From Phycisphaera mikurensis NBRC 102666 (lineage in GTDB: Bacteria > Planctomycetota > Phycisphaerae > Phycisphaerales > Phycisphaeraceae), in contig NC_017080.1 in assembly GCF_000284115.1 (NCBI RefSeq), forward strand, positions 3,120,001-3,152,000: 32,000 nt of DNA, written 5' to 3'. How positions within the stretch are numbered: position 1 is the first letter of the stretch; the number at the start of each line of letters is the position of its first letter. This document shows positions 3,287 to 29,636 of the stretch, one piece after another. Position numbers and translations under genes: made by a program. A model generated the notes under the pieces. The model did not search any database and was not told where the DNA came from. It worked only from the letters and a program-made list of their open reading frames with translations.

Positions 3287-3617
3287 GGAGAGAGCCGAAG
3301 CGACGTGTGGTCGACGCGCTGGAGGAGGGCTGCACGGCTCGCGAAGCCCGACGCGCTGCGCTCGCGGCCGCACCGCGGAGAGACGAAGAGCCGAAGACGG
3401 CCGCGCATCGCCGCAGGCAACAACGCCCCTGCTCCTCCCCGCCTCCCCGCCTCTCCGCCTCTTCGTCTCTTCGTCTCTCCGCCTCCCCGTCTCTTCGTCT
3501 CTTCGTCTCTTCGTCTCTTCGTCTCTTTGGCTCTTCGTCTCTTCGTCTCTTCGTCTCTTCGTCTCTTCGTCTCTCCGTCTCTCCGTCTCTCCGTCTCTCC
3601 ACCTCTCCGCCTCCCCG
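3287..3617. repeat. Composite octamer-repeat element, copy A (variant unit GTCTCTTC)
   Basis: Short purine arms are GGAGAGAGCCGAAGCGACG (3287-3305) and GGAGAGACGAAGAGCCGAAGACGG (3377-3400). They are followed by 22 head-to-tail 8-nt pyrimidine units from 3441 to 3616 (GCCTCCCC, GCCTCTTC, GTCTCTTC x many, GTCTCTCC x4, ...). It lies in the larE-mcsA spacer. Confidence 0.9.
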
Positions 3618-3694
3618 CCGCCAGCCCACCGACTCCCCGCCCTACCGTCCAAGGCCGCATCGCTCTCCCGGTTCGATCCGCAAGGCGCTCTCTC

Positions 3695-4282
3695 ATGAAA
3701 CGAAAATGCGACCAGTGCGGACGCCCCGCCACGCACCACGCGGTGGACATCGTCAAGGGCGTGAAGACTGAGACCCACCTCTGCGACGTCCACGCCGCGG
3801 AGGCGGGGCTGGACCAGACGCCCGCCGCGCACACGCCGATCGACGAGCTGCTGACCAGCTTCGTGAAGGTGCACTCCACGGGCGAGACGGCGACCATCGG
3901 CAAGGCGCCGACCCGCGTCTGCAGCAGCTGCGGGCTGACCTTCTCGGAGTTCCGCGAGAAGTCGCTGCTGGGCTGCCCCACCTGCTACGCCGACTTCGAG
4001 GCGCAGCTCGGGCCGCTCCTGGAGCGGGCCCACGAGGGCGGCACGCACCACGTCGGCAAGACCCCGCGGCGGGCGGGCGGCGCCGAGCAGCGGCAGCTGC
4101 GGCTGGCCCGGCTCCAGCGACGCCTCGACGAGGCCCTGGAGGCGGAGGACTACGAGTCGGCGGCGGAGATCCGGGACGAGCTCGAGGGCGTGGCTTCGGC
4201 CTCCGACAGCACGGGGTCCTCGGGGGCGACCGGCCCGAAGCCGCAAGCCGCGTCCGATCCCTCGTCCGGGAGCGGCGAATGA
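3695..4282 (+). CDS. mcsA: McsA-like activator of protein arginine kinase (zinc-finger + UVR-domain protein)
   Basis: ATG at 3695 gives MKRKCDQCGRPATHHAV...HLCDVH. A second Cys pair is CSSCG...GCPTCY. The C-terminal UVR-type helix is LRLARLQRRLDEALEAEDYESAAEIRDELE. The stop overlaps the mcsB ATG (ATGA). Confidence 0.8.
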   Translation: MKRKCDQCGRPATHHAVDIVKGVKTETHLCDVHAAEAGLDQTPAAHTPIDELLTSFVKVHSTGETATIGKAPTRVCSSCGLTFSEFREKSLLGCPTCYADFEAQLGPLLERAHEGGTHHVGKTPRRAGGAEQRQLRLARLQRRLDEALEAEDYESAAEIRDELEGVASASDSTGSSGATGPKPQAASDPSSGSGE

Positions 4283-5340
4283 CCCCCGGACGCATGATCG
4301 ATCACGCCGGCGAGTGGCTCCGGGGCGAGGGTCCCGAGAGCGACGTGGTCATCTCCTCGCGAATCCGCCTCGCGCGGAACCTCGCCGGCTTCCCCTTCGT
4401 CAACCGCACCAACACCCGGCAGAAGCACGCGATCCTCGCGGCCTGCCGCGAGCGGGTCACGCAGCGGCGGATCGCCGAGAACGCGGTCTGGATCGGCATC
4501 GACGACGCCGACGCGCTGGACCGGCAGCTGCTCGTCGAGCGGCACCTCATCAGCCGGCCGTTCGCGAACCCCAAGAACAGCCTGCCGCGCGGCGTCGCCC
4601 TGGGAGCCGACGAGACCTTCGCGATCATGGTGAACGAGGAGGACCACCTCCGCGTGCAGGTGCTCCGCTCGGGCATGCAGCTCTCCGAGGCCTTCGACCA
4701 GATCGGCCGCATCGACGACGTGCTCGAAGAGGATCTGGATTTCGCCTACTCGCGTCGCTTCGGCTACCTCACCGCCTGCCCCACCAACGCGGGCACCGGC
4801 ATCCGCGTGAGCGTGATGCTGCACCTGCCGGCGCTCAAGCTCACCGGCGAGATCGACAAGGTCAAGCGGGCCGCCCGCGAGCTGCACCTGGCCGTCCGCG
4901 GCATGTTCGGCGAGGGCAGCGACGCCCACGGCGACCTGTACCAGGTGAGCAACCAGACGACGCTGGGCAAGACCGAGGAGGAGATCCTCGGCGACTTCCA
5001 GAAGACGGTCGTCCCGCAGATCATCGCCTACGAGAACCAGGCCCGGCAGCTGCTGGTCAAGCAGCGAGAAGCCCAGCTCGACGACCGCATCTGGCGGGCC
5101 TGGGGCCTGCTCACCTCGGCCCGCGTCATGGGCACCGAGGAGGTCCTCCAGCTCCTGAGCCACGTCCGCCTGGGGGTGAACCTCGGCCGCCTGGCCACCG
5201 TCGACATCCGCACCGTCAACGAGCTCTTCCTCCTGACTCAGCCCGCCCACCTGCAGAAGCTCACCGGCGAGCCCATGGAACCCGCCGAGCGACGCGTCGC
5301 GCGGGCGAAGATGCTGCGTCAGCGGCTCAAGGCTTCGTGA
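4279..5340 (+). CDS. mcsB: Protein arginine kinase McsB (ATP:guanido phosphotransferase family)
   Basis: The guanido kinase active-site signature CPTNAGTGIRVSVMLHLPAL is present, along with EEDHLRVQV and NQTTLGKTEEEI. 353 aa, translationally coupled to mcsA. Confidence 0.9.
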   Translation: MTPGRMIDHAGEWLRGEGPESDVVISSRIRLARNLAGFPFVNRTNTRQKHAILAACRERVTQRRIAENAVWIGIDDADALDRQLLVERHLISRPFANPKNSLPRGVALGADETFAIMVNEEDHLRVQVLRSGMQLSEAFDQIGRIDDVLEEDLDFAYSRRFGYLTACPTNAGTGIRVSVMLHLPALKLTGEIDKVKRAARELHLAVRGMFGEGSDAHGDLYQVSNQTTLGKTEEEILGDFQKTVVPQIIAYENQARQLLVKQREAQLDDRIWRAWGLLTSARVMGTEEVLQLLSHVRLGVNLGRLATVDIRTVNELFLLTQPAHLQKLTGEPMEPAERRVARAKMLRQRLKAS

Positions 5341-5567
5341 GTCTCGGCGTGTACGGGCAGGGAGGCGAGCCGCGGATGAGCACAGATGAACACGGATGAG
5401 AACGAAGCCCGCGTATCACCACCGCATTCCAGCGGACACGCGGCATCGCGCGCTGCTTGGTGCGTGTTGAAGCGGAAGCAGGACGGGTCCGGCAAGCTGC
5501 GCCGCTCCCCCTGCTCGGTGCTTCTCTGCTCCCATCGGTGGATCGTCTTCGCCCGGGTCCGCAGGGC

Positions 5568-6224: not shown

Positions 6225-6423
6225 GACGCATCCCACGTGAACGCGCGGGCGCCCGCTGATCCACCGGCTCGGTCGCCACGCTCTTCAGGGCTGGGCCTTC
6301 GACGCGTTCTTCGGGAAGACCGGGATGCTCGGCTCCGCGAGGATGCGCAGAAGGTCGGGCCCTCCGGCGGGTGGGGGGACCCGCGTGGCGGAGGCGGAAC
6401 CGCATCGAACCGATACCCGGTGC

Positions 6424-7410
6424 ATGACCGCCCCGACTTCCTTCCTCTTCGGCTCGGGACGCTCGGGCACGGTGGTGCTGCTGCGGCTGATCAACCTCGA
6501 TCCCGGCGTGGTGGTCCGCAACGAACCCGACGAGCTCAGCGACTCGCCGCTGGGCCGCGCACTGGGGCAGAGCGGCGTGCGCGACGACGCCAACGACGGC
6601 ACCGCGATCGACGTCGCGCTCGACACCTCCGGCGGCTTCGGCCGCCGCTTCGACGAAGCGCTCGCGGCGATCCGCACCCGCCGGGGGACGCGGGACCACC
6701 CCTGGGCGACACGCAAGGCCTGGCACCGCCCGATCCCGCTCAAGCTGCTCAACGCGGGGCTCAAGGCCGGCCTCCGGCAGCGGCTGCAACGCGGCCGCGA
6801 GGCCTGGGAGGTGCCGGGCTGGGCCGCGGATCGGGCGGCGCTCGCCGCGGCGCCGCTGAGCGTGAAGATCAACAACGGGCCCGCCCTGGCGCGGTGGCTC
6901 GCCGCGGAGCGGCCGGACCTCCGAGCGATGGAGATCGTCCGCCACCCCGGGGGCTTCCTCGCCTCGTGGCGGGCCCGCTGGCTCAACCGGCCCGGGGTCG
7001 ACCCCGCGGCCGTCCTCGCGAAGAACCGGGCACGCCTCGCCGCCGTCGCGGCGGCCGAGCCCGCGTGGGGCGAGCGCTGGGGAGACCCCGCCGCGCTCGA
7101 CGTCGACGCCAGCGAGCTCTGGTACTGGCGCTACAGCAATGAGGCGGTGCTGGCGGCCTACGCGGGCGACACCCGGCTGCTCCCCATCGGCTTCGAACGC
7201 TTCTGCCGCGAGCCGCAGGCGCACGCGGAGGCGGTCTACCGCCACCTCGGGCTTCCGTACACCGACCGCGTCCGAGCCGGCGTGGCGGCCGAGATGCAAG
7301 GATCCACGGAGATCGCTTCGGCCTGGAAGCAGAAGCTCGGCCCCGAGCGGGTGGCGCTTGTCGAGGCCGTGCTCGCGGGCAGCCCGCTCGCCGACCTCGT
7401 CGAGGCCTGA
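6424..7410 (+). CDS. Sulfotransferase family protein
   Basis: ATG at 6424 gives MTAPTSFLFGSGRSGTVVLLRL, a PAPS 5'-phosphosulfate-binding loop (xGxxRSGT). The later IVRHPGGFLAS resembles the 3'-phosphate-binding motif. High GC3. The start choice is uncertain (the ORF opens at 6325). Confidence 0.68.
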   Translation: MTAPTSFLFGSGRSGTVVLLRLINLDPGVVVRNEPDELSDSPLGRALGQSGVRDDANDGTAIDVALDTSGGFGRRFDEALAAIRTRRGTRDHPWATRKAWHRPIPLKLLNAGLKAGLRQRLQRGREAWEVPGWAADRAALAAAPLSVKINNGPALARWLAAERPDLRAMEIVRHPGGFLASWRARWLNRPGVDPAAVLAKNRARLAAVAAAEPAWGERWGDPAALDVDASELWYWRYSNEAVLAAYAGDTRLLPIGFERFCREPQAHAEAVYRHLGLPYTDRVRAGVAAEMQGSTEIASAWKQKLGPERVALVEAVLAGSPLADLVEA

Positions 7411-7583
7411 CCCCGGCGGCGGAAGCTTCATCTGAAACGAATCCCGAGGGTTCAGAAGAAGTTGTCCACCGCCGCGTCCGGAGGCTTCGCTGCCGCGGAG
7501 CCGGGCGCCGGTCGACCCCGATCGGGTGCGCCGCTCGGGCGGCGCCGGGCGAGCGGCCTTCTGCGTTCCCGCGCAGCGAAACG

Positions 7584-7610: not shown

Positions 7611-7643
7611 CGGCTTGGCGGGATCCGGCGTCGGACCAGCCGC

Positions 7644-8668: not shown

Positions 8669-10219
8669 TCAAGCGAGCACGGCGGCCAGCTGGCCCTCGA
8701 CACCCGGTGCCGGCAGCGAACTCTCCCCCATCAGCCGCGTGTCGATCGCCCGCGCGGCGCCGCGACCCTCGGCGATGGCCCAGACGATCAGGCTCGCGCC
8801 GCGCCGGACGTCGCCGGCGGCGTAGACCTTCTCCACGCCCGTGCGGTAGCCGTCCTCCTCGGTGGCGATGCTGCCGTCGGCCGCGGTCTGCAGGCCGAAT
8901 CCATCCAGCAGCGCCGGCGTGTCGTGACCGGTGAAGCCGATCGAGAGCAGCACGAGGTCGGCCCGGAGCCGCTCGATCTCGCCGGTCGGGGTCGACTTCC
9001 AGCGGCCGTCGACTCTCTCCCAACGCAGCTTCTCGACCTCGACGAAGCCGACCCGCGAGGGGTCGTCGTCGCGGGCGACGAAGCCCTTGGGCAGCAAGCC
9101 GTAGCGCCGCGGATCCTGCTCGAACTGCGCCGAGCCTTCGGCGTGGCCGTAGTCGACGTAGAAGGTGCCGGTGGGTCCGGGCCAGGGGTGGTCCTCGTCG
9201 CGCTCGTCGGGCTCGCGTTCGCGACGCGTGATGTTCGTCACGCTCGCGGCGCCGTGCCGGATGGCGGTGCCGATGCAGTCGGTGCCGGTGTCGCCGCCGC
9301 CGATGACCACGACGTGCTTGCCTTCGGCGGAGAGGTAGTCGCCGTCGGCGAGGCCCGAGTCCAGCAGCGACTTGGTGTTGCGCCAGAGGAACGTCATCGC
9401 CTTCTCGACGCCCCCGAGTGAGCGACCGGGCAGGCCCGCGAGGTCGCGGCCCTTGAGCGCCCCGCAGGCGAGCAGCACGGCGTCGTAGTCGTCGATGAGG
9501 CGCTGCGGGTCGACGTTGCGGATCTCCGGGCCCGCCCCCGTGCCGAAGTCGCTCTGCGAGCCGCCGACGTTCGCGTGGGTGATGAAGGTGATGCCCGCCT
9601 GCCGCAGGAGGTCGACCCGCCGCTCGACGATCTTCTTCTCGAGCTTCATGTTGGGCACGCCGTACATGAGCAGCCCGCCGATGCGGTCGTCCCGCTCGTA
9701 CACCGTGACGTGGTGGCCGGCCTTGTTGAGCTGGTCGGCGGCGGCGAGGCCCGCCGGGCCCGAGCCGACGATGGCCACCGTCTTGCCGGTCCGTGCTTCG
9801 GGGGTGTTCGGGGTGACCCACCCCTCATCGAAGGCCCGGTCGATGATGGAGCACTCGATGCTCTTGATCGTCACCGGGCTCGCGTTGATGCCCAGGACGC
9901 AGGCCGACTCGCACGGTGCCGGGCAGATCCGCCCGGTGAACTCCGGGAAGTTGTTGGTCATCGTCAGACGCAGGTACGCCTCGTGCCACCGCTCGCGGTA
10001 GACCAGGTCGTTCCACTCGGGGATCTGGTTGTCGATCGGGCAGCCCGACTCGCTCTGGCAGAAGGGCACGCCGCAGTCCATGCAGCGGGCCCCCTGGTCC
10101 ATGAGCGTCTGGTCGTCGTGCCGCGCGTAGATCTCGTGGAAATCGCCGATGCGCAGCAGCGGATCCCTCGCGGGCATCGGCTGGCGCTCGTACTGCATGA
10201 ATCCGTTGGGTTGGCCCAT
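8669..10219 (-). CDS. gltD: Glutamate synthase (NADPH) small subunit
   Basis: ATG at 10219 gives MGQPNGFMQYERQPMPARDP. Fe-S Cys clusters are CMDCGVPFC and CPAPCESAC, and the dinucleotide fold is VAIVGSGPAGLAAA. Also present are GGLLMYGVPNMKL and VVVIGGGDTGTDC. 516 aa. Confidence 0.93.
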   Translation of the reverse strand: MGQPNGFMQYERQPMPARDPLLRIGDFHEIYARHDDQTLMDQGARCMDCGVPFCQSESGCPIDNQIPEWNDLVYRERWHEAYLRLTMTNNFPEFTGRICPAPCESACVLGINASPVTIKSIECSIIDRAFDEGWVTPNTPEARTGKTVAIVGSGPAGLAAADQLNKAGHHVTVYERDDRIGGLLMYGVPNMKLEKKIVERRVDLLRQAGITFITHANVGGSQSDFGTGAGPEIRNVDPQRLIDDYDAVLLACGALKGRDLAGLPGRSLGGVEKAMTFLWRNTKSLLDSGLADGDYLSAEGKHVVVIGGGDTGTDCIGTAIRHGAASVTNITRREREPDERDEDHPWPGPTGTFYVDYGHAEGSAQFEQDPRRYGLLPKGFVARDDDPSRVGFVEVEKLRWERVDGRWKSTPTGEIERLRADLVLLSIGFTGHDTPALLDGFGLQTAADGSIATEEDGYRTGVEKVYAAGDVRRGASLIVWAIAEGRGAARAIDTRLMGESSLPAPGVEGQLAAVLA

Positions 10220-10224
10220 AGAGC

Positions 10225-10245
10225 GGGGGGGGGTTGGGGGGGGGG
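10225..10245. repeat. Homopolymer pair G9-TT-G10 (C10-AA-C9 on the gltD sense strand)
   Basis: Read directly: g x9 (10225-10233), tt, g x10 (10236-10245). It ends 5 nt upstream of the gltD ATG (minus strand: CCCCCCCCCCAACCCCCCCCCGCTCTATG). Confidence 0.95.
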
Positions 10246-10530
10246 CAGGAGCAAGCGAAGAAGCGAGGAAGCGAAGAAGCGGAGAAGTCAGGCAACGCAG
10301 CGGCAAAGCCGCTCGCTCCGAGAGGACCACGATCGCAAGCCTCCACCCGCAGTCTTCTCCAGATCGTCACTTCGCCGCTTCTTCACTTCTTCACTTCTTC
10401 GCTTCTTCGCTTCTTCACTTCTTCACTTCTTCACTTCTTCACTTCTTCGCTTCTTCGCTTCTTCGCTTCTCCGCTTCTTCGCTTCTTCGCTTCTCCGCTT
10501 CTCCGCTTCTCCGCTTCTCCGCTTCTCCGC
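10246..10530. repeat. Composite octamer-repeat element, copy B (gltB-gltD spacer)
   Basis: The left purine arm is GCAAGC + GAAGAAGC GAGGAAGC GAAGAAGC GGAGAAGT (10251-10288). The spacer has hairpin AGCGGC-aaa-GCCGCT (10299-10313). Then come 19 exact-period 8-nt units at 10377-10528 (7x GCTTCTTC, 6x ACTTCTTC, 6x GCTTCTCC, arranged in blocks), ending 2 nt from the gltB stop codon. Confidence 0.92.
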
Positions 10531-13500
10531 TCATCCCAGCCCCAACTCGAGCGCGCCCGGCTGATTCTCCACCGCCGTCGCCCGCTTCTGCCGCTCGAGC
10601 ACCCGGCGGTAGTCGATGGGCATCACCTTCTTGAAGAGCTTCACGCTCTTCTCCCAGTTCTGCAGCACCTTGTCGGCGACGGCGGAGCCGGTGAGGCGGG
10701 CGTGCTCGACGATGAGGTGCTGGAGCTCCTCGGCGTCGCCGAGGGCGTCGGGGCCGTCGATGCGTTCGAGCTCCACCATGCCGAGGTTGCAGTGCTGGAG
10801 CAGCGTGTCGTCGCGGTCGAGCACGTAGGCGATGCCGCCGGACATGCCGGCCGCGAAGTTGCGGCCGACCCCGCCGAGGATGACGGCCCGGCCGCCGGTC
10901 ATGTACTCGCAGCCGTGGTCCCCGACGCCCTCGACCACCGCCAAAGCCCCGGAGTTGCGGACGCAGAAGCGCTCGGCCGCCACGCCGCGGAAGTAGGCCT
11001 CGCCGGAGGTCGCCCCGTAGAGCGCCACGTTGCCGATGAGGATGTTGTCCTCGGCCTTGAAGCCCGAGGCGGCCGGCGGCTTGACCACGATGCGGCCGCC
11101 GGAGAGCCCCTTGCCGACGTAGTCGTTCGCGTCGCCGGTGACGGTGATCGACACGCCGCGGGTGAGCCACGCGCCCAGGCTCTGGCCCGCGGAGCCGCGG
11201 AGCCGCACGTCGATGGTGTGCGGCGGCAGGCCGCCGGCGCCGTGGCGCTTGCTGACCTCCCAGGAGAGCATCGTGCCCACGGTCCGGTTGAGGTTGGTCA
11301 CCGGCAGCTCGATGCTCACCGGCGTCTGGTGCTCGAGCGCCGGCATCGCCTCGGCGATGAGCCGGTTGTCGATGTGGCCCTCGACGCCGTGGTCCTGGCC
11401 CTCGCACTTGAACGCCTTCGCGTCGGCACGCGGGCCCTTCGCCGGGAGCAGCAGCGCGGAGAGGTCCAGGCCGTGGGCCTTCCACGCGTCGACGGCCGCC
11501 CGGGTGCGGAGCAGCTCAACGCGGCCGACGAGCTCCTCGATCGTCCGCACGCCCATCTTGGCCATGTAGCCGCGGGCTTCCTCGGCGACGAGGAAGAGGT
11601 AGTTGAGCACGTGCTCGGGCGTGCCGTTGAACTTCGCCCGCAGGTCGGGGTCCTGCGTGCAGACCCCGACCGGGCAGGTGTTCAGGTGGCACTTGCGCAT
11701 CATGATGCAGCCCATCGTGATCATCGGGGCGGTCGAGAAGCCGAACTCCTCGGCCCCCAAGCACGCGGCGATGACCACGTCGCGGCCGGTCTTGAAGCCG
11801 CCGTCGGTTTCGAGCGAGACGCGGGAGCGGAGCCCGTTGAGCACCAGCGTCTGGTGCGCCTCGGCCAGCCCCAGCTCCCAGGGCAACCCGGCGTGCTTGA
11901 TGCTGGTGAGCGGGCTGGCCCCCGTGCCGCCGTCGGCGCCGGAGATGAGGATGTGGTCCGCCTTGGCCTTGGCCACGCCCGCGGCCACGGTGCCCACGCC
12001 CACCTCGGCGACGAGCTTGACGCTCACGTCGGCGACGGGGTTGCTGCGCTTGAGGTCGTGGATGAGCTGCGCGAGGTCCTCGATGGAGTAGATGTCGTGG
12101 TGCGGCGGCGGGCTGATGAGGCCCACGCCCGGCGTCGAGTGCCGGATGCCCGCGATGTACGGATCGACCTTGAAGCCGGGCAGCTGCCCGCCCTCGCCGG
12201 GCTTGGCGCCTTGAGCGATCTTGATTTGCAGGCGGTCGGCGTTGGCCAGGTAATGGCTGGTGACGCCGAAGCGGCCCGAGGCGATCTGCTTGATGGCGGA
12301 CCGCTTGCTCTTGACGCTGCCGTCGGGGTACTGGGCGAGCGAGAAGCGCTTCGGGTCCTCGCCGCCCTCGCCGGAGTTGGACAGCCCGCCCACGCGGTTC
12401 ATCGCCAGCGCGAGCGTCTCGTGGGCCTCCTTGGAGAGGGCGCCCAGGGACATGGCGCCGGTGCGGAAACGCTTCACGATCTCCTTGGCGGGCTCGACCT
12501 CGTCGATCGAGATCGCGACCGTGGGCAGGCCGTCCAGCTCGCGCTCCACCACGGCGTGCGGGTCGGGCCGGGCCTCGATCTCTTCGGGCGTCAGGCGGGC
12601 CTGCCCGGGCACGCCGGGCGCGGTGAGCGCTTCGGTGAAGGCCTCGCCGTCGCCGTCGAAGGGCCCGTCTTGCAGGTCGCCGTGGGTCTTCGGCTTGGGC
12701 TCGTCGGCGTAGCGCATCTCCAGCAGGCCGCGGAGCGAGCCCTGGTGCTTCGCGTCGTCGTTGCAGAAGCGGGCGTACTGGTCGTAGGCGACCCGGCTGT
12801 TCGAGCGGCTCGCGGCCTGCAGGCTCGCGACCACCTGCGGGCTCCAGCCGTGCCGCTCGCCGCCGGGCCGCCAGGCGTACTCGCCGGGGTTGGGCAGCTG
12901 GGCGAGGCGCACGAGCTCGCGGCGCGGGAAGCCGATCGCGTGGCGCCGCAGCGACTCCGCGGCGATGACGTCCAACCCGGCTCCGGAGATCCGCGAGGCG
13001 GTGCCGACGAAGGCCCGGTCGATCGTCTCCTGCCCGAGGCCGACGGCCTCGAAGATCTGGGCCCCGTGGTAGCTGGCGAGCGTGGAGATGCCCATCTTGG
13101 ACATCACCTTCTGCAAGCCGAGGCCGATGGATTTCGCGAGGAGCCGCTCGATCTTCTCGTCGGTCAGCGTCTCGTCGAGCACGCCCTCCTCGCGGAGGCC
13201 GCGGATCGCCTGCACCGCGAGGTACGGGTTCACCGCGTCGACGCCGTACCCGAAGAGCGTGGCGAAGTGATGCACCTCGCGGGCCTCGCCCGATTCGAGC
13301 ACGAGTCCGATCCGCGTGCGGCTGTGCGTGCGGACGAGGTGGTGGTGGACGGCGCCGACGGCGAGCAGCGAGGGGATGGCGACCCGATCCGCCGAGACGC
13401 CGCGGTCGGAGAGCACGAGCACGCGCGAGCCCGCGGCGATCGCCGCGTCGGCCTCGTCGCAGAGCCGCTGGAGCGCCGCCCGCAGCGGGTCGCCCGCGGC

Positions 13501-15453
13501 CCGCAGGTCGCCGGGCTCCCCCGCGTTGCCGGCGCCGGCGCGGACGGCGGTCTCGCGGCGGTCCGGCCGCATCGCCTCCTCGTCCTGGGGGTCCGGGCGG
13601 TCGAAGGTGACGTCCAGCGTCGTCGAGGTCCAGCCGCGGGAGCCGGGCCGGCCGTCGAGCTTCTTGATCGAGGCCATCTCGGCGTCGGTGAGCACCGGCT
13701 GGGCGAGGTGCAGCCGGTGGCACTGCGCCGCGGTGGTGTCCAGCAGGTTGCCCTCGGGGCCGACCAGCGCGTCGAGCGCCATGATCAGCGTCTCGCGCAG
13801 CGGGTCGATCGGCGGGTTGGTCACCTGCGCGAAGAGCTGCTTGAAGTAGTCGTAGAGCAGGCGCGGCTGGTCGCTGAGCACGGCCAGCGCGGCGTCGTTG
13901 CCCATCGAACCCAGCGCCTCCTTGGAGTTCTTGCCGGCCGAAACCATCGGCAGCAGCAGCTGGTAGACGTGCTCGGTCGTGTAGCCGAAAGCCTGGAGCA
14001 GGCGGAGCCGCTCCTCGCCGTCGGGTGCCCGCTCGGGCAGCGCCTCGGGCAGGTCGTCCAGCCGGATCTTCTGCTCGCGCAGCCACTGGGCGTAGGGCCG
14101 CTTCTCGGCGATCCCCCGCTTGAGCTCCTCGTCGGGGATGATGCGTCCCTGCTCGAAGTCGACCAGCAGCATCCGCCCCGGCTGGAGCCGTCCCTTCCGG
14201 ACGATCGTCTCGGGCGCGACGTCCACGACGCCGACCTCGCTGGCGAGGATCACCCGGTCGTCGTCGGTCACGTAATACCGAGAGGGCCGCAACCCGTTGC
14301 GGTCGAGCGTGGCGCCGATCGTGCGGCCGTCGGAGAAGCCCACGCTCGCCGGGCCGTCCCAGGGCTCGATGAGGTTCGCGTGGTACTCGTAGAACGCGCG
14401 CTTCTTGAGCCCCATCGACTCGTGGTGCTCCCACGCCTCGGGGATCATCATCATCATCGCCTCGGGCAGCGAACGCCCCGCCATCATCAGCAGCTCGAGC
14501 ACGTTGTCGAAGGTGCCCGAGTCGCTGTTCGCGGGGTTGATGATCGGAAACAGGTCGTCCATGTCGCCGAGCAGCTCGCTGTGGAGCAGCCCCTGCCGGG
14601 CCTCCATCCAGTTGCGGTTGCCGCGGACCGTGTTGATCTCGCCGTTGTGGCACATCCAGCGGCACGGCTGCGCCCGGTCCCAGCTGGGGAAGGTGTTCGT
14701 CGAGAAACGCGAGTGCACCATCGCCAGGTGGCTCTGGTAGTCCTCGTCGCGGAGGTCGGGGAAGTACGCCGGCACCTGCGTCGAGAGCAGCTGGCCCTTG
14801 TAGACCAGCGTCCGGCTCGACAGCGAGCACACGTAGAAGAGGTGGCCGTCGACCATCTCCGAGCCTCCGGCCTCGCACGCTTCGCGGACGCTGCGGACCA
14901 CGCGGCTGCGGAGGCGGAAGAGCGAGCGGTCGAAGGCGTCGCCCCGCTCGTCGGCGTCGAGCGACGCGGGCCGCCGGACGAACAGCTGCTCCATCGCCGG
15001 CTCGGTCCGCAGCGCCGAGGGTCCGATGCCCGCCCCGGCGGCATCGGTGGGGAGCTTCCGCCAGCCCAGAAGCTCGACGCCCTCCGCCTCCGCCGCCCCG
15101 GCGACGAGCGCGCGGCACCGCTCCCGCGTCGCCTCGTCCTGCGGGAAGAAGACGTTGCCGCAGCCGTACGCGCCCGGCTCGGGCAGCTCGATGCCGGCTT
15201 CCGCCTGCGCCACGCGGCGCAGCAGCGTGTGCGGCATCGCGGTGGTGATCCCGGCGCCGTCGCCGGTGTTGTCCTCGCAGCCGCAGGCGCCGCGGTGGTC
15301 CATGCGGGAGAGCATCTCCAGCGCATCGGCAACGATCGCGTGGCTGCGCTTGCCCTTCATGTGGGCGATGAAGCCCATCCCGCAGGCGTCGTGCTCGTAC
15401 GCGGGGTCGTACAGGCCGCGGGCGTCGGGGAGGCTGGAGGGGGCGGTCGTCAT
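10531..15453 (-). CDS. gltB: Glutamate synthase (NADPH) large subunit
   Basis: ATG at 15453 gives MTTAPSSLPDARGLYDPAYEHDACGMGFIAHMKGKRSH (Ntn amidotransferase Cys). The central FMN/Fe-S domains are recognisable, and the C-terminal GXGXG domain is GNVALYGATSGEAYFRGVAAERFCVRNSGA. 1640 aa. The upstream 102 codons of the ORF call are Arg/Pro/Gly junk. Confidence 0.95.
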   Translation of the reverse strand: MTTAPSSLPDARGLYDPAYEHDACGMGFIAHMKGKRSHAIVADALEMLSRMDHRGACGCEDNTGDGAGITTAMPHTLLRRVAQAEAGIELPEPGAYGCGNVFFPQDEATRERCRALVAGAAEAEGVELLGWRKLPTDAAGAGIGPSALRTEPAMEQLFVRRPASLDADERGDAFDRSLFRLRSRVVRSVREACEAGGSEMVDGHLFYVCSLSSRTLVYKGQLLSTQVPAYFPDLRDEDYQSHLAMVHSRFSTNTFPSWDRAQPCRWMCHNGEINTVRGNRNWMEARQGLLHSELLGDMDDLFPIINPANSDSGTFDNVLELLMMAGRSLPEAMMMMIPEAWEHHESMGLKKRAFYEYHANLIEPWDGPASVGFSDGRTIGATLDRNGLRPSRYYVTDDDRVILASEVGVVDVAPETIVRKGRLQPGRMLLVDFEQGRIIPDEELKRGIAEKRPYAQWLREQKIRLDDLPEALPERAPDGEERLRLLQAFGYTTEHVYQLLLPMVSAGKNSKEALGSMGNDAALAVLSDQPRLLYDYFKQLFAQVTNPPIDPLRETLIMALDALVGPEGNLLDTTAAQCHRLHLAQPVLTDAEMASIKKLDGRPGSRGWTSTTLDVTFDRPDPQDEEAMRPDRRETAVRAGAGNAGEPGDLRAAGDPLRAALQRLCDEADAAIAAGSRVLVLSDRGVSADRVAIPSLLAVGAVHHHLVRTHSRTRIGLVLESGEAREVHHFATLFGYGVDAVNPYLAVQAIRGLREEGVLDETLTDEKIERLLAKSIGLGLQKVMSKMGISTLASYHGAQIFEAVGLGQETIDRAFVGTASRISGAGLDVIAAESLRRHAIGFPRRELVRLAQLPNPGEYAWRPGGERHGWSPQVVASLQAASRSNSRVAYDQYARFCNDDAKHQGSLRGLLEMRYADEPKPKTHGDLQDGPFDGDGEAFTEALTAPGVPGQARLTPEEIEARPDPHAVVERELDGLPTVAISIDEVEPAKEIVKRFRTGAMSLGALSKEAHETLALAMNRVGGLSNSGEGGEDPKRFSLAQYPDGSVKSKRSAIKQIASGRFGVTSHYLANADRLQIKIAQGAKPGEGGQLPGFKVDPYIAGIRHSTPGVGLISPPPHHDIYSIEDLAQLIHDLKRSNPVADVSVKLVAEVGVGTVAAGVAKAKADHILISGADGGTGASPLTSIKHAGLPWELGLAEAHQTLVLNGLRSRVSLETDGGFKTGRDVVIAACLGAEEFGFSTAPMITMGCIMMRKCHLNTCPVGVCTQDPDLRAKFNGTPEHVLNYLFLVAEEARGYMAKMGVRTIEELVGRVELLRTRAAVDAWKAHGLDLSALLLPAKGPRADAKAFKCEGQDHGVEGHIDNRLIAEAMPALEHQTPVSIELPVTNLNRTVGTMLSWEVSKRHGAGGLPPHTIDVRLRGSAGQSLGAWLTRGVSITVTGDANDYVGKGLSGGRIVVKPPAASGFKAEDNILIGNVALYGATSGEAYFRGVAAERFCVRNSGALAVVEGVGDHGCEYMTGGRAVILGGVGRNFAAGMSGGIAYVLDRDDTLLQHCNLGMVELERIDGPDALGDAEELQHLIVEHARLTGSAVADKVLQNWEKSVKLFKKVMPIDYRRVLERQKRATAVENQPGALELGLG

Positions 15454-15509
15454 GGCGTGGGGCGTCGCGGTGCCGGGCGTGCGCGTGCGGGAGAAGCTTC
15501 GGGGCGGGT

Positions 15510-16538: not shown

Positions 16539-16541
16539 GGG

Positions 16542-22111: not shown

Positions 22112-22135
22112 TTCCGCCTCTGCATGCGGTCCTCT

Positions 22136-26428: not shown

Positions 26429-26499
26429 AGGCCCATGGTGTAATGGCAGCACAGCTGTTTTTGGTGCAGCTCGTCGGGGTTCGAATCCCTGTGGGCCTA
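26429..26499 (+). tRNA. tRNA-Gln (anticodon TTG)
   Basis: Manual cloverleaf: acceptor AGGCCCA/TGGGCCT, D arm GTGT-AATGGCA-GCAC, anticodon stem GCTGT/GCAGC with loop TT-TTG-GT, 4-nt variable region, T arm CGGGG-TTCGAAT-CCCTG, discriminator A. CCA is not encoded. Confidence 0.88.
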
Positions 26500-26735
26500 A
26501 AAGAACTTTGCTCCGTGGGCTTCGCCCGCTGTGCAAGGTTGCGCCCCGAGCGGGGCACGTCTCCGCCGGGGGCGACCCGCGGCTCCGCTTGGGAGCGGTC
26601 GGCTCCGTCGCGGCCGATCCGCGAACAGCGGCGGGGTGGCGTCACCGCGGACCGCGGGCGTTCCGCACGCCGCGGGCGAGCGGTCCGCGGGTCGGGTTGG
26701 AGATCCTGCCCGCCGCGGCTGCGGAGCGTGTCCTC

Positions 26736-27545
26736 ATGACAGCCTCTCCACTCTCGGCCATCGTGCTCGCGGCGGGCAAGGGTTCGCGCATGGGCAGCGA
26801 CCTGCCCAAGGTGCTCCACGAGGTGGGCGGCCGGGCCATGATCCACCACGTGCTCGACGCGGGCCGCGCGGCGGGGGTGGGCCGCTTCGTCGTCGTGGTC
26901 GGGCACGAGGCGCAGCGGGTGCGAGCGGAGCTGTCGGGCGCATCCGACGTCGACTTCGCAGAGCAGGCCGAGCAGCTGGGCACCGGCCACGCCGCGGCCG
27001 TGGCGGAACCCTTCTTCGCCGGCGCGGCATCGGGCCCGGACGTCCTCGTGCTGTGCGGCGACATGCCGTTGACGCGGCCGGAGACGCTGCGGAAGATCCT
27101 CGCGGCCCACCGCGAGGAGGGCGCGGCGGCGACGCTGGGCACGGCGGTCCTCGACGACCCCGACGGCTACGGCCGGGTGGTCCGCGACGCGGACGGCCGC
27201 TTCGATCGCATCGTCGAGCAGAAGGACGCCGACGCGGCGACGCTGGCGATCCGCGAGGTGAACCCGAGCCTCTACGCCTTCCGCGCCGGGGACCTGTTCG
27301 GCGAGCTCTCGAAGCTCTCCAGCGACAACGCCCAGGGCGAGTACTACCTCACCGACGTGCCCGGGCAGCTCAAGGCCCGCGGCGGGTCGGTCGCGCTCGT
27401 GCCCGCTCTCGCCGCCGACGAGGTCATCGGGATCAACACGAAGGCGCACCTCGCCGAGGTGGACCGGATCTTCCGCCGCCGATCCGCTGGCGGACGTGAC
27501 GTTCCCGACGCCTCCTCCACCCCCGCCCCGGGAGCCGACGAGTGA
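26736..27545 (+). CDS. glmU: GlmU-like sugar-1-phosphate nucleotidyltransferase (N-terminal uridyltransferase domain only)
   Basis: ATG at 26736 gives MTASPLSAIVLAAGKGSRMGSDLPKVLHEVGGRAMIHHV (LAAGxGxRM). Further motifs are EQLGTGHA, LVLCGDMPL, GYGRVV and NPSLYAF. It is only 269 aa and no left-handed beta-helix hexapeptide region follows. The stop overlaps the prs GTG. Confidence 0.78.
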   Translation: MTASPLSAIVLAAGKGSRMGSDLPKVLHEVGGRAMIHHVLDAGRAAGVGRFVVVVGHEAQRVRAELSGASDVDFAEQAEQLGTGHAAAVAEPFFAGAASGPDVLVLCGDMPLTRPETLRKILAAHREEGAAATLGTAVLDDPDGYGRVVRDADGRFDRIVEQKDADAATLAIREVNPSLYAFRAGDLFGELSKLSSDNAQGEYYLTDVPGQLKARGGSVALVPALAADEVIGINTKAHLAEVDRIFRRRSAGGRDVPDASSTPAPGADE

Positions 27546-28555
27546 GCCGAAGCAAGCAACGCGAGAACGCCCAGATGCCGCCCGCCGACGCCGACCGCCT
27601 GAAGGTGTTCTGCGGCCGCGCCAGCAAGCCGATGGGCGAGGCGATCTGCCGGCACCTCGGGGTTCCGGTGGGCCAGGCGGCCACCGAGCTGTTCCCCGAC
27701 GGCGAGCTGTTCGTCAAGATCGACGAGGACGTCCGCGGGCGCGACTGCTTCGTCGTGCAGAGCACCTACCACCCGGTCAACGCCCACCTGATGGAGCTGT
27801 TGATTTACATCGATTGCCTCCGCCGCGCCAGCGCCGGGCAGATCACCGCGGTCGTCCCCTACTACGGCTACGCCCGGCAGGACCGCAAGGACGAGGGCCG
27901 CGTGCCGATCACCGCGAAGCTCGTCGCGAACCTGATCACCGCCGCCGGCGCCGATCGCGTGGTGGCCCTGGACCTGCACACCGCGCAGATCCAGGGCTTC
28001 TTCGACCTGCCGGTGGACCACCTCTCCAGCAGCCCGGTGATCCTCGGGGCTCTCGACCCCGTCGCCGCCGAGGGCAACCTCGTCGTCGTCTCCCCGGACG
28101 TCGGCAACGTGAAGGTCGCCAGCAAGTACGCCGAGCAGCTCGGGGCCGAGCTGGCGATCATCGACAAGACCCGCAAGAGCGGCGACACCGTCGAGATGGG
28201 CAGCATCATCGGCGACGTCGCCGGCAAGGTCGTGCTCATGGTCGACGACATGATCTCCACCGCCGGCACGATCTGCCAGGCCGCCGAGCTGGTGATGAAG
28301 CACGGCGCGAAGGACGTCATCGCCGCCGCGACCCACGGCGTGTTCGTCGGCCTCGCCATCGAGCGGATCCGCGACAGCCCCATCAGCCGCGTGCTCGTCA
28401 CCGACTCCATCCCCTGCGCCGGCCGCTGCGAGCCAATCGCCGACAAACTCGAGGAGCTCTCCGTCGCCCCCCTGCTCGGCGAGACCATCGGCCGCATCCA
28501 CCAGAACCGCTCGGTCAGCTCGCTGTTCGCCCGGGACACGGGGCCGAAGAGGTGA
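27542..28555 (+). CDS. prs: Ribose-phosphate pyrophosphokinase (PRPP synthetase)
   Basis: Diagnostic motifs are YYGYARQDRK, DLHTAQIQGFFDLPVDHL and the PRPP loop VLMVDDMISTAGTI. The GTG at 27542 overlaps the glmU stop. An alternative in-frame ATG is at 27575. Confidence 0.93.
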   Translation: MSRSKQRENAQMPPADADRLKVFCGRASKPMGEAICRHLGVPVGQAATELFPDGELFVKIDEDVRGRDCFVVQSTYHPVNAHLMELLIYIDCLRRASAGQITAVVPYYGYARQDRKDEGRVPITAKLVANLITAAGADRVVALDLHTAQIQGFFDLPVDHLSSSPVILGALDPVAAEGNLVVVSPDVGNVKVASKYAEQLGAELAIIDKTRKSGDTVEMGSIIGDVAGKVVLMVDDMISTAGTICQAAELVMKHGAKDVIAAATHGVFVGLAIERIRDSPISRVLVTDSIPCAGRCEPIADKLEELSVAPLLGETIGRIHQNRSVSSLFARDTGPKR

Positions 28556-28564
28556 CCAGCATGG

Positions 28565-28722
28565 CAGCGGCTGTGCCGCTCCTGGCTGCGCCAGGCAAGC
28601 GCAGAAGAGCGAAAGCGAAGAAGTGAGGAAGTCGGCACCGAGCAAGAGCGGCTCTGCCGCCGCCGCAGGCGGCTCTTGCTGACTCTCTCTCTTCTCCGCT
28701 TCTTCTCTTCTTCGCTTGCTCC
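28565..28722. repeat. Composite octamer-repeat element, copy C (prs-rplY spacer)
   Basis: The conserved left end is CAGCGGCTgtGCCGCTcctGGCTGCGCCAGGCAAGCG (28565-28601). The purine arm is CAGAAGAGCGAAAGCGAAGAAGTGAGGAAGTC. The central hairpin is AGCAAGAGC (28641-28649)/GCTCTTGCT (28672-28680). The pyrimidine arm CTCTCTCTCTTCTCCGCTTCTTCTCTTCTTCGCTTGCTCC ends at 28722. Confidence 0.9.
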
Positions 28723-28778
28723 CTGATCCAACCCACCACGACCAAACGAACCGAACCCTCCCGATCCCCAAGACCGCT

Positions 28779-29429
28779 ATGTCCACCGACACCCCCACCC
28801 TCTCCACCGAAACCCGCACCAAGCTGGGCACGCGCTACAACCGCCGCCTCCGCAGCGCCGGCCGCTTGCCGGCCGTCGTCTACGGGCACGGCCACGACCC
28901 GATGCACGTCAGCGTGGACACGCGCGCGTTCCACGCGATCCTCGATCACCACTCCCACCTCGTGGAGGTGAACGTGGACGGCAAGCCCCAGCCGTGCCTG
29001 ATCAAGGACGTTCAGTACGACCACCTCGATCGCGACCCCGTCCACGCCGACTTCGCCATCGTGAACCTCGACGAGGAGATCGAGATCGAGCTGGAGATCG
29101 TCCTCAAGGGCGAGCCGGCCGGCCTCTCCGAAGACGGCGCCGCCCTCTCGCAGCCGATGAACACGATCGTCGTGAAGACCAAGGCCAACAACATCCCCGA
29201 GAGCATCACCCAAGACGTCTCGGCGATGAACGTCGGCGATCAGGTCCACGTCGGCGAGCTGACCTTCCCGGACGGTGTGAGCACCGACGTGGAGGACGAC
29301 CTGCTCGTCTGCCAGGTCGTCATCCGCCAGGAGCAGCCCGACCCCGAGCCGGTCGACGAGCTGGAAGAGCCCGGCGTGATCGGCGAGGGCGAGGAGCCCG
29401 GGCCGGAGGAAGCCGGCAGCAGCGACTGA
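28779..29429 (+). CDS. rplY: 50S ribosomal protein L25 / general stress protein Ctc (long form)
   Basis: ATG at 28779 gives MSTDTPTLSTETRTKLGTRYNRRLRSAGRLPAVVYGHG. The L25 N-domain is followed by the Ctc C-domain (IEIELEIVLKGEPAG...VHVGELTFPDGV) and an acidic tail. 216 aa. Confidence 0.9.
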   Translation: MSTDTPTLSTETRTKLGTRYNRRLRSAGRLPAVVYGHGHDPMHVSVDTRAFHAILDHHSHLVEVNVDGKPQPCLIKDVQYDHLDRDPVHADFAIVNLDEEIEIELEIVLKGEPAGLSEDGAALSQPMNTIVVKTKANNIPESITQDVSAMNVGDQVHVGELTFPDGVSTDVEDDLLVCQVVIRQEQPDPEPVDELEEPGVIGEGEEPGPEEAGSSD

Positions 29430-29436
29430 GGGTGAA

Positions 29437-29636
29437 CAGCGGCTTCGCCGCTTATGGCTGCGCCAGGCAAGCGGGGAAGCGAGCAAGCGGGGAAGCGGAG
29501 AAGTTAGGAAGCGAAGAAGTCAGAAACGGACAAGAGCGGCCCTGGTCCGACTCTCACTTTCCCGCTTCTCCACTTCTTCGCTTCCCCGCTTCTTCGCTTC
29601 CCCGCTTCTTCGCTTCCCCGCTTCTTCGCTTGCTTC
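29437..29636. repeat. Composite octamer-repeat element, copy D (rplY-pth spacer)
   Basis: The left end CAGCGGCTtcGCCGCTtatGGCTGCGCCAGGCAAGCG (29437-29473) is 33/37 identical to copy C. Six purine octamers follow (GGGGAAGC GAGCAAGC GGGGAAGC GGAGAAGT TAGGAAGC GAAGAAGT, 29473-29520). After a spacer come about 10 pyrimidine octamers at 29555-29634 (GCTTCTCC, ACTTCTTC, alternating GCTTCCCC/GCTTCTTC), ending in CGCTTGCTTC. Confidence 0.9.

Follow-up and report, generated by a model that had tools for sequence, protein, structure and literature searches.

What are the inverted octamer arrays that occupy four spacers in a 32,000-nucleotide stretch of the Phycisphaera mikurensis chromosome (the window; 73% GC), and what in them is conserved? 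The four elements, A (larE|mcsA), B (gltB|gltD), C (prs|rplY), and D (rplY|pth), share one layout, in which a 5′ arm rich in A/G and a complementary 3′ arm rich in T/C enclose a central GC-rich hairpin. The single composite, non-coding architecture between co-directional genes reported in the initial annotation was seen in all four spacers. Pfam matches agreed with the names given to the flanking genes, except for the larE ORF, which has only a marginal NAD_synthase match.

Anatomy of the elements

The following features were delineated, all described on the plus strand.
3377–3400, plus strand: 5′ purine arm of A, GGAGAGACGAAGAGCCGAAGACGG (fold; pairs with array units)
3401–3435, plus strand: GC-rich central spacer of A with a small hairpin (sequence, fold)
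3436–3620, plus strand: expanded 3′ pyrimidine array of A, about 23 units of GTCTCTTC/GCCTCTCC/GCCTCCCC (TRF, covariance model)
10249–10292, plus strand: purine arm of B, GAGCAAGCGAAGAAGCGAGGAAGCGAAGAAGCGGAGAAGTCAGG (sequence, arm pairing)
10293–10375, plus strand: central spacer of B with hairpin CAGCGGCAAAGCCGCTCG at 10298–10315 (sequence, fold)
10376–10531, plus strand: expanded array of B, 19.5 units of GCTTCTTC/ACTTCTTC/GCTTCTCC (TRF, 95% matches)
28564–28595, plus strand: two small GC hairpins of C, AGCGGC-TGT-GCCGCT and CCTGGC-TGC-GCCAGG, right after the prs stop codon
28595–28719, plus strand: near-symmetric long hairpin of C, with purine arm 28595–28635, central GC hairpin 28640–28679, and pyrimidine arm 28680–28719 (fold, orthologues, covariance model)
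29437–29465, plus strand: two small hairpins of D, AGCGGC-TTC-GCCGCT and TGGC-TGC-GCCA, after the rplY stop codon and within the conserved 5′ motif TGGCTGCGCCAGGCAAGCG
29467–29633, plus strand: long hairpin of D, with purine arm 29467–29523 (16-nt unit twice), centre 29524–29555, and pyrimidine arm 29556–29633 (16-nt unit GCTTCCCCGCTTCTTC, 4.3 copies) (fold, TRF, covariance model)

The octamer repeats were confirmed as real and far above chance, since the two-unit pattern RCTTCYYCRCTTCYYC occurs 30 times (0.00 expected from shuffles) and the end motif GCAAGCGRRGAAG 13 times (0.2 expected). The arms contain 35–41% A and 38–47% T, against 13–14% of each in the genome. A fifth copy (E) was detected 0.5 kb outside the window; its 4.5 units are of the GTCTCTTC/GCCTCTCC type found in A, unlike those of the other window copies, and reach into the tail of the hisF ORF. 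In all five P. mikurensis copies, the purine arm comes first, the flanking genes are on the same strand, and the element starts 0–10 nt past the end of the upstream ORF or overlaps that end. A covariance model was trained on C/D-type elements only, i.e. P. mikurensis copy C, which as a training member scored 131.7 bits, and three relatives. The model matched B (10249–10425, 66.5 bits), D, which is outside the training set (65.8 bits), the fifth copy (43 bits), and A (3374–3484, 29 bits, E value of about 7e-5), with no further match in the 48 kb scanned. The notion of a dispersed family was borne out by the fifth copy, by these matches, and by orthologous copies in congeners. Copies at different loci have in common the sequence GCAAGCG...GAAGTCRG...CTGACT, and a central GC-rich stem-loop follows the stop codon in B, C, the fifth copy, and orthologues. 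Inverted outer ends had been attributed to all four elements; the 13-nt ends GCAAGCGAAGAAG/CTTCTTCGCTTGC were found in C and D, B has the left end only, and A lacks them.

One arm is expanded into an 8-nt array in A (TRF: 3434–3619, period 8, 23.2 copies), B, D (TRF: 29563–29636, 9 period-8 units that are really the 16-nt unit), and the fifth copy, the long arm being the right one in 4/4 cases, too few to establish a rule. Copy C had also been described as a repeat array, a view that does not hold because TRF detected only 3.4 units (28691–28717) in what is essentially a symmetric hairpin. The array units vary block-wise, with higher-order units of 16 or 24 nt, and their sequences differ among copies within one genome and among close relatives. 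The dominant units, GAAGAAGC, GGAGAAGC, and GAAGAGAC, contain no GGG, and a G-tract is present only in GGGGAAGC of element D. The B array adjoins the gltB stop codon (10531–10533). In the gltBD transcript, which is read from the minus strand, this array forms the 5′ purine arm, and the complement of the B purine arm forms a short pyrimidine arm on the 3′ side, immediately before gltD. The second P. mikurensis assembly, the one other assembly compared, is identical across all arrays; Logan contigs stop within the A array (at 3476) and within D (at 29599).

The left purine arms are complementary to the arrays and pair with them. RNA folding was significant for D (dG −125, z −10.4), C (dG −89, z −3.8), and B (z −4.1). 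It was not significant for the whole 416-nt spacer A (z −0.14), although the local 24-nt purine arm of A (38% A, against 13% in the window) pairs with the array. No known Rfam model corresponds to the elements, as only two tRNAs reached the gathering score and the matches below it were limited to generic miRNA-precursor hairpin models.

Conservation and turnover in relatives

Three congeners (L122, L123, and L198), whose L25 proteins are 88, 82, and 79% identical, retain the core hairpin in both spacers, prs|rplY and rplY|pth. In these congeners, the hairpin is present without arrays and displays no 8-nt periodicity. The congener arms covary: pairing is held in 92.7% of the cells, versus 53–62% with slid partners, double changes occur at 7 pairs, and the covariation score exceeded that of 500/500 shuffles. 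Equivalents of the small post-stop hairpins of C covary as well (GGGCC-TGC-GGCCC). In more distant relatives, unrelated sequences in these spacers again form purine-first hairpins, as in L199 (prs|rplY) and in a relative with a 91% identical GltD (gltB|gltD). What persists is thus the structure, not the sequence. Arrays of heptamers are present in relatives L201 and L129–L131.

The arrays have been suggested to be hypervariable contingency loci (VNTRs), in which gains and losses of units would modulate polarity on the following gene or its translation. Block-wise variants and 16- or 24-nt higher-order units are typical of recent slippage, the period is not divisible by 3, and one array lies within an ORF tail. 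Against this, the neighbours are housekeeping genes (glutamate synthase, L25, Pth, and McsA) rather than surface or contingency genes, the two assemblies agree over all arrays, and the congeners have the hairpin but no arrays, making this explanation very improbable.

A strong rival to any RNA-level function holds that these are DNA palindromes, selfish or neutral, that do nothing for the host, either REP/REPIN- or MITE-like or slippage-prone repeats nucleating in tolerant spacers. Arm complementarity would then be kept by hairpin-templated repair, gene conversion, or master-copy turnover. Several observations fit this possibility, which we regard as a serious one: the loci share sequence as well as structure, sequence turnover between relatives is fast, array growth is unconstrained, reaching even the tail of the hisF ORF, and the elements are partially homogenised within a genome, C and D of L122 being 0.85 identical to each other and at most 0.77 to their orthologues. 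However, C of P. mikurensis resembles its orthologue (0.85) more than it does the adjacent D (0.77), and the same spacers are kept across genus-level divergence and refilled by unrelated hairpins of the same polarity. A MITE is also disfavored because the 13-nt inverted ends of C and D, like the ends of B, are not flanked by direct duplications.

Polarity and occurrence in other phyla

Among purine/pyrimidine inverted octamer arrays in 1.4 Mb of sequence from many phyla, the purine arm came first in 16 cases and second in none. If the left arm of an inverted repeat is purine-rich, both strands read purine-first, so the left-purine rule is unavoidable geometry and carries no replication signal, contrary to the proposal of the initial annotation that orientation tracks the chromosome or replication strand. 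GC3 skew provided no replication signal against which to set the expansion of the right arm. The 16:0 ratio implies selection, at least against the opposite polarity, which counts against neutral palindromes. Octamer arrays in other phyla were located in 44 co-directional, 12 convergent, and 6 divergent spacers, and their strand relative to the flanking genes was without preference (22:22, based on crude gene calls), a neutrality to transcription that selfish DNA would accommodate and that counts against a terminator. Periods 7 and 8 dominate tandem arrays across phyla. Members elsewhere include canonical terminators with extended arms (L075 and L053); in L075, AAAACCAGCTCGGG...CCCGAGCTGGTTTT is flanked by GAAGAAGT/ACTTCTTC units.

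The elements might also act as DNA, through a non-B structure (cruciform, G-quadruplex/i-motif, or triplex) or as arrays of 7-8-bp sites for a cooperative DNA-binding protein, thereby affecting replication, supercoiling, or transcription. The complementarity is strand-symmetric, and contiguous direct and inverted units with a 7-8-bp period fit ribbon-helix-helix operators, such as the 8-bp boxes of MetJ and the 7-bp heptads of omega. The GGGGAAGC units, present in element D and in many Gemmatimonadales arrays, could form G-quadruplexes, as the GGGAATC repeat does in vitro (PMC4692102). Conversely, most units (GAAGAAGC, GAAGAGAC) lack a G-tract, the congener hairpins lack the 8-nt periodicity, and units vary within the genome and between close relatives, which would call for many different binding proteins. 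The H-DNA tracts considered initially did not stand up, as a mirror repeat of this type has about 15 nt or more of unbroken homopurine and the longest homopurine or homopyrimidine run is 7 nt in the A, B, and D arrays, with one run of 15 nt in the short right arm of C. Action as DNA is therefore improbable.

Comparison with known repeat systems

The elements constitute a new form within the 7-8-base intergenic repeat pairs, a poorly understood class known from Xanthomonas and cyanobacteria. Their closest published analogue is the inverted pairs of GGGAATC heptamers in Xanthomonas, described in a study of Xanthomonas/Nostoc G-rich heptamer repeats (GGGAATC, GGGGAYT) that left their function unresolved (Rehm et al., 2015, PMC4692102). 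These arrays are about 90% intergenic, approximately 70 'tandemly inverted' convergent pairs are present per Xanthomonas genome, and transcripts start or stop within the GGGAATC repeats more often than in controls (PMC4692102). The absence of any known layout was thus stated too strongly, since paired convergent 7-nt arrays occur at stop codons between aligned ORFs in Xanthomonas (PMC4692102). Both systems consist of tandem arrays of 7-9-nt units (2–26 units there; 23, 19.5, 3.4, 9, and 4.5 here), mostly between aligned and rarely between divergent ORFs, located at the upstream stop codon or across it, and without strand preference. In both, paired arrays are convergent, apparently without exception in Xanthomonas, with the G/purine strand first and the capacity to form a stem-loop, and related species share loci that differ in length and sequence. 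The differences are the unit (8 nt here, 7 nt there), the phylum (Planctomycetota), and a conserved non-repetitive core, comprising the central GC hairpin, the GAAGTCRG/CTGACT junctions, and the 5′ small hairpins, which survives without arrays in congeners. The GGGAATC class also has a G-tract in every unit and a preference for four units, neither of which was found here; since most units lack G-tracts, there is no requirement for a G-quadruplex and no four-unit preference.

The cyanobacterial STRR/TAACTGA-type heptamer direct repeats (MacGregor, 2015, PMC4679880; Nostoc recF/recO study, bioRxiv 10.1101/2022.06.06.494920) are likewise abundant intergenic 7-nt arrays, found in ribosomal-protein operons among others, with a suspected but unproven post-transcriptional role. 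Unlike the present elements, most of them are direct arrays that lie immediately before start codons and keep a single orientation with respect to the gene; they rarely form inverted pairs and have no purine/pyrimidine skew. REP/BIME/REPIN elements resemble those described here in being extragenic, hairpin-forming, species-specific in sequence, often intercistronic, and persistent at orthologous sites, but the arms here are tandem units with a strong purine/pyrimidine asymmetry. REP/BIME/REPIN elements stabilise upstream mRNA and attenuate transcription. A REP is an imperfect palindrome of 20–40 nt that carries a conserved GTAG-like tetranucleotide on its 5′ side, and a REPIN joins two REPs in inverted orientation; their cognate RAYT is a Y1 transposase. 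Assignment to this class was rejected because there is no GTAG head and the purine-only or pyrimidine-only arms are not self-complementary; no RAYT gene was present among the Pfam matches of the window and called flanking genes (48 kb). Mycobacterial MIRUs are also dispersed tandem repeats in intra-operon spacers of a high-GC genome, in that case intercistronic minisatellites. Their units are larger (40–100 bp), direct only, and operon-oriented, and carry small ORFs coupling stop and start codons in place of a hairpin architecture. A CRISPR array (24-47-nt direct repeats, unique spacers) was discarded, as before, because the 8-nt units are contiguous.

A possible terminator-like or processing stem-loop

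The anatomy, polarity, conservation, covariation, and expansion of the elements were observed, whereas we infer that they are transcribed, that they cause termination or processing, and that slippage made the arms grow. Our best guess, held tentatively, adopts the RNA-hairpin role proposed in the initial annotation: the elements may be terminator-like or processing RNA stem-loops, whose A-tract-like and U-tract-like arms have grown by slippage. The conserved unit would be a long stem-loop that follows a gene and is transcribed with its mRNA, in the intercistronic spacer, with one or two small GC hairpins just after the stop codon followed by an A/G-rich arm, a GC hairpin, and a U/C-rich arm. 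This anatomy matches an intrinsic terminator that works in both directions, with its A-tract, GC stem-loop, and U-tract recast for a 73% GC genome. RNA polymerase would pause or partly terminate at the element, the intrinsically weak hybrid between pyrimidine RNA and purine DNA in the 3′ arm being invaded by the upstream purine arm. The resulting structure could act as a stable 3′ end or an RNase III-type processing stem-loop, making the stability of each cistron independent of that of its neighbour. The 8-nt arrays would arise as a by-product, since an arm composed of short-period repeats can be extended by replication slippage while pairing is kept, as may have occurred on one side in P. mikurensis.

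The purine-first rule favours the terminator reading because only with that polarity is the stem followed 3′ by a U/C-rich tail whichever strand is read. Bidirectional and long-stem terminators share with the elements an A-rich 5′ flank, a GC stem-loop and a U-rich 3′ flank, combined into an unusually long stem, a position after stop codons, and a polarity valid on both strands, and very long stems do work in terminators, e.g. TerR of pLS20 (PMC10325885). In contrast to these terminators, the elements are embedded in probable operons, expansion has brought one arm to 150–185 nt, and the tail is a C/U mix without an uninterrupted U-tract. A canonical intrinsic terminator was rejected on the latter ground, the stem-loop after the stop codon being present. 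A terminator scan returned no site at the elements and no canonical 7-9-nt U-tract directly 3′ of the stem; the 3′ arms are 38–47% T, but C and G interrupt. The requirement of mycobacterial RNA polymerase for a U-tract (PMC3993855) also counts against termination, as does the read-through past the element that gltB|gltD, and probably prs-rplY-pth, requires. No promoter-like sites were found in a scan downstream of the elements. In transcripts of B and the fifth copy, it is the 5′ purine arm that has been expanded, a lengthening from which a terminator gains nothing. Finally, the predicted stability of the hairpin is about equal on both strands, as selfish DNA would have it, and sense-strand G.U outnumbers A.C only about 2:1 among non-independent sequences, so there is no clear RNA-specific signature.

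A broader version of the stem-loop reading, which we consider doubtful, is that purine-first inverted arrays of 7-8-nt units mark a widespread U-tract-independent 3′-end or termination signal, in which the purine-rich 5′ arm would displace the weak pyrimidine-RNA/purine-DNA hybrid on either strand. If so, this signal would take the place of canonical terminators in phyla that are GC-rich or otherwise non-model (Planctomycetota, Gemmatimonadota, Acidobacteriota, and Xanthomonas), and the excess of periods 7 and 8 would reflect slippage of the size of the polymerase footprint, regenerating such signals.

Architecture of the octamer-repeat elements

The initial annotation described inverted octamer-repeat elements, designated A to D, in four spacers of the window (GC content of 72.8%; chromosome of 3.80 Mb), and the features described were found in all four. 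Pfam agreed with the names given to the flanking genes, support being marginal for the ORF called larE.

Table. Period-8 arrays detected by TRF and flanking genes identified by Pfam (window coordinates).
2427-3284, + strand, ORF called larE, marginal NAD_synthase-family (PP-loop) match
3434-3619, array of element A, 23 units
3695-4282, + strand, McsA-like
8669-10222, - strand, GltD
10376-10531, array of element B, 19.5 units
10531-15759, - strand, GltB
27542-28555, + strand, Prs
28691-28717, array of element C, 3.4 units
28779-29429, + strand, L25
29563-29636, array of element D, 9 units
29694-30269, + strand, Pth

The two-unit pattern occurred 30 times (0 expected) and the end motif 13 times (0.2 expected). 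The left purine arms were 80-92% complementary to the arrays, and the 5' and 3' arms contained 35-41% A and 38-47% T, respectively, versus 13-14% of each base in the genome. RNA folds were far better than those of shuffled sequences for D (z -10.4), B (z -4.1), and C (z -3.8). Spacer A folded as a whole was not better than shuffles (z -0.14), its 24-nt arm pairing locally. The proposed common layout held for the four spacers, except that C is better described as an almost symmetric hairpin than as an array. The inverted ends GCAAGCGAAGAAG and CTTCTTCGCTTGC were present in C and D, whereas B had the left end only. The unit of element A, GTCTCTTC, differed from those of B to D.

The anatomy of the elements led us to reject CRISPRs and MITEs with target-site duplication. 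Coding capacity was also rejected, as ORFs running through the arrays were low-complexity artefacts, apart from the hisF tail of a fifth copy (see below). No Rfam family matched the elements, permissive thresholds retrieving generic miRNA-hairpin models only. A literature search with the exact octamer-array sequence returned nothing relevant, BLAST against plasmids gave no match, and a search for paralogous P. mikurensis loci with a Ser/Thr kinase protein recovered orthologues only. Homopurine and homopyrimidine runs reach at most 7 nt in the A, B, and D arrays, and the H-DNA structure suggested in the initial annotation was rejected on this anatomy. The same short runs, together with the variation of unit sequences between copies and between relatives, argue against a DNA-structure or protein-binding role, which we consider unlikely.

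Repeats of other kinds were present in the region. The gltD 5' leader (window 10224-10245) contains the homopolymers G9-TT-G10 (C10-AA-C9 on the gltD strand), unusual and slippage-prone tracts occupying the stretch between element B and the gltD start codon. The mcsB|recR spacer (window 5373-5399) harbors 2.7 copies of the purine-rich decamer CGGATGAACA with no complementary partner. Between the convergent genes pth and pckA (window 30282-30690), there are 3.8 tandem copies of a 106-nt unit, with 92% matches. Each unit is self-complementary, with arms of ca. 36 nt, and carries the motifs AGCGGCGACGCCGCT and GGCTGGCTGCG, which resemble the small hairpins located 5' of elements C and D; these repeats may form a BIME-like cluster of terminator hairpins. 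Finally, a 465-nt spacer following an hrpA-like helicase gene, ca. 2.7-2.9 kb left of the window (4639-4861 of L203, a locus of the second P. mikurensis assembly), contains an AT-richer 28-nt inverted repeat (TAGAGCATCGTGCGCAATTTTCCGATCG and its complement, 102 nt apart) and a perfect 17-nt palindrome. This inverted repeat is a different kind of element from A to D.

A fifth copy and family membership

The second assembly, GCA_014207395.1 (loci L202 and L203), was 100% identical across the window and extended the sequence to 48 kb. It contained a fifth copy, of the A type, ca. 0.46 kb past the right end of the window (L202 12765-12868), consisting of the left arm GAGAGACGAAGAGACGAAGTCGG, a central hairpin, and 4.5 copies of GTCTCTTC, and flanked by hisF and pckA, both on the - strand. 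The array of this copy (L202 12812-12900, ca. 0.5-0.6 kb past the right end of the window) falls within the hisF ORF. HisF continues beyond its usual ...GLPVRR end by 27 residues (VGRGPEPGQGQETKRRRDEETKTGSAR), with a stop codon in the central spacer of the element, and an altered unit number would frameshift the tail of the ORF.

A covariance model trained only on C/D-type elements (copy C of P. mikurensis plus those of three relatives) scored B at 66.5 bits, D at 65.8 bits, the fifth copy at 42.7 bits, and A at 29 bits (E ~7e-5), and detected no further site in the 48 kb. A scan of the 48 kb for purine and pyrimidine runs was in agreement with the model. Together, these results indicate that the family is real, with five members in the 48 kb; a figure for the whole genome would be an extrapolation. 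Logan short-read contigs (SRR12223476) terminated precisely within arrays A, B, and D (window 3476, 10488, and 29599, respectively), indicating that these arrays fragment short-read assemblies, a practical consequence of their presence.

Conservation and turnover in relatives

The prs|rplY and rplY|pth spacers both held the same element in three relatives, L122, L123, and L198 (88%, 82%, and 79% L25 identity, respectively). The elements of these relatives have in common small GC hairpins with covarying stems located 3' of the stop codon, the junctions GAAGTCRG and CTGACT, and the central GC hairpin. The rplY|pth copies share the motif TGGCTGCGCCAGGCAAGCG, from which L122 and L198 each depart at one base. 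The arms are made of other sequences (GGGAAAGAGTGAG..., GAAGAGAGAAAGAGAG...) with complementarity retained, and no 8-nt periodicity was found in them. In seven elements, 92.7% of cells were paired versus 53-62% with slid partners, double changes were present at seven pairs, and the covariation score exceeded those of all 500 shuffles. The octamer arrays are an expansion of the P. mikurensis lineage. Neighboring copies were homogenized in L122 (identity of 0.85 versus at most 0.77 to orthologues), the only genome in which this was clear; it was not clear in P. mikurensis.

At greater distances, the prs|rplY spacer of L199 (74% L25 identity) contained an unrelated purine-first hairpin, and L201 (58%) contained TACTGAC heptamers and a hairpin of TTGCCGAT units. 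The gltB|gltD spacer held an unrelated G-rich/C-rich purine-first hairpin in a relative with 91% GltD identity and no hairpin in a relative with 75% GltD identity. A metagenome scan with L25 yielded only distant loci (at most 48% identity), from which the element was absent. Comparison of the relatives' spacers thus indicates that the hairpin type persists while its sequence turns over.

Two further observations were made at these loci. Downstream of pth, L199 carries a purine-first hairpin of 430 nt (6261-6692) composed of GAGGCACA octamers and CACGGAGG units. TAACTGA-like heptamer arrays (TGACTAC, GAACTGA, CAACTGA) adjoin rplY in the planctomycete-like metagenome contigs L201 (9911-9940), L129-L131, and L167, extending the range of hosts from which repeats of this type have been reported.

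Arm geometry and orientation

The purine arm lies on the left even for genes of the - strand, and the initial annotation concluded that orientation may track the chromosome. This argument does not hold, since an inverted repeat with its purine arm on the left is purine-arm-first on both strands; the placement is unavoidable and uninformative on replication. The true asymmetry concerns arm length. In plus-strand coordinates, the right arm is expanded in A, B, D, and the fifth copy (4/4), a bias that is suggestive only. In the transcript, the expanded arm is the 3' pyrimidine arm in A and D and the 5' purine arm in B and the fifth copy. GC3 skew across the 48 kb was purely transcription-linked (+0.157/-0.152), and neither GC skew nor GC3 skew gave a signal for replication direction.

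A wider class of short-period arrays

A genome collection was scanned for three RCTTCYYC units (RCTTCYYCRCTTCYYCRCTTC). Among the matches listed, arrays were present in Gemmatimonadales, Phycisphaerales, Acidobacteriota, Bacteroidota, Microcystis, Streptomyces, and others, and many were composite, with purine units, a hairpin-bearing spacer, and complementary pyrimidine units. In 1.4 Mb of loci from many phyla (L002-L197), periods were analyzed for tandem arrays of at least four copies, and polarity for inverted pairs. Excluding seeded arrays in scan loci, periods 7 and 8 accounted for 80 of 96 arrays. Unseeded array counts were 61 for period 7, 33 for period 8, and 6, 3, 2, and 3 for periods 6, 9, 10, and 11, respectively; unseeded L25 loci contained 10 arrays of period 7, 4 of period 8, and 3 of all other periods. 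An inverted partner was located within 400 nt of 27% of the period-7/8 arrays. All 16 purine/pyrimidine-skewed octamer pairs were purine-first (16:0), in a sample carrying a CTTC seed bias, and heptamer pairs were purine-first (8), pyrimidine-first (5), or neutral (10). Pyrimidine-first hairpins from a cruder scan were short, unrelated REP-like palindromes. According to crude gene calls, arrays flanked by co-directional genes were split 22:22 in their orientation relative to these genes, the other spacers being convergent (12) or divergent (6).

Many bacteria have an excess of intergenic arrays with short periods of 7-8 nt (Rehm et al., PMC4692102; MacGregor, PMC4679880). In Xanthomonas, GGGAATC heptamer arrays are ca. 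90% intergenic, occur chiefly between aligned ORFs, at the stop codon or overlapping it, and seldom between divergent ORFs, have no strand or replichore preference, form 70-75 convergent inverted pairs per genome, and differ in length at the same loci among related species (Rehm et al., PMC4692102). Transcript starts and stops are more common in G-quadruplex-capable repeats than in control repeats, the function of GGGAATC being 'still to be elucidated'; the same authors cite an earlier report of an excess of heptamers among bacterial SSRs, with the polymerase footprint proposed as the reason (PMC4692102). Only speculative roles have been put forward for heptamer direct repeats (MacGregor, PMC4679880; Nostoc study, 10.1101/2022.06.06.494920). 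The general phenomenon is already published and unexplained, and the P. mikurensis elements are a new octamer-based planctomycete form of a known class.

Possible function

Among the roles proposed initially, that of an RNA hairpin is the one we tentatively favor: the elements may act as terminators or attenuators and as stem-loops for 3'-end or RNase III-type processing, the arrays being secondary products of slippage. This preference is based on the terminator-like anatomy, the purine-first polarity, and the weakness of pyrimidine-RNA/purine-DNA hybrids. With an A-rich arm, a GC stem-loop, and a T-rich arm, the elements have the anatomy of a bidirectional intrinsic terminator fitted to 73% GC, and only the purine-first polarity provides, whichever strand is read, a U/C tail 3' of the stem. 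Among RNA/DNA hybrids, those of pyrimidine RNA with purine DNA form the weakest class, whereas the opposite polarity would generate strong, R-loop-prone hybrids. Some class members elsewhere (L075 and L053) are clearly terminators of the canonical type whose arms are extended. Most 3' ends in cyanobacteria are not attributable to canonical terminators (PMC12642595), which are also rare in high-GC lineages (PMC3993855).

The terminator reading is opposed by the lack in the elements of a true U-tract, which the mycobacterial polymerase requires (PMC3993855), by a scan for consensus promoters and terminators that found nothing there, and by the need of downstream genes for read-through. It is also opposed by hairpin stability that is equal on both strands (sense versus antisense energies) and by an excess of G.U over A.C of only ca. 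2:1, which give no clear RNA-specific signature. Selfish or neutral DNA palindromes therefore remain a strong, if somewhat less likely, explanation. A DNA-structure or protein-binding role is less likely than such palindromes, as is the notion that the arrays are contingency VNTRs, which is highly improbable.

Transcription-unit ends and the punctuation of operon mRNAs are poorly understood beyond model bacteria. The locus contributes a planctomycete octamer example with a conserved non-repetitive core, in which orthologous copies set the conserved hairpin apart from the lineage-specific array, and the cross-phylum polarity rule is a constraint on every explanation.
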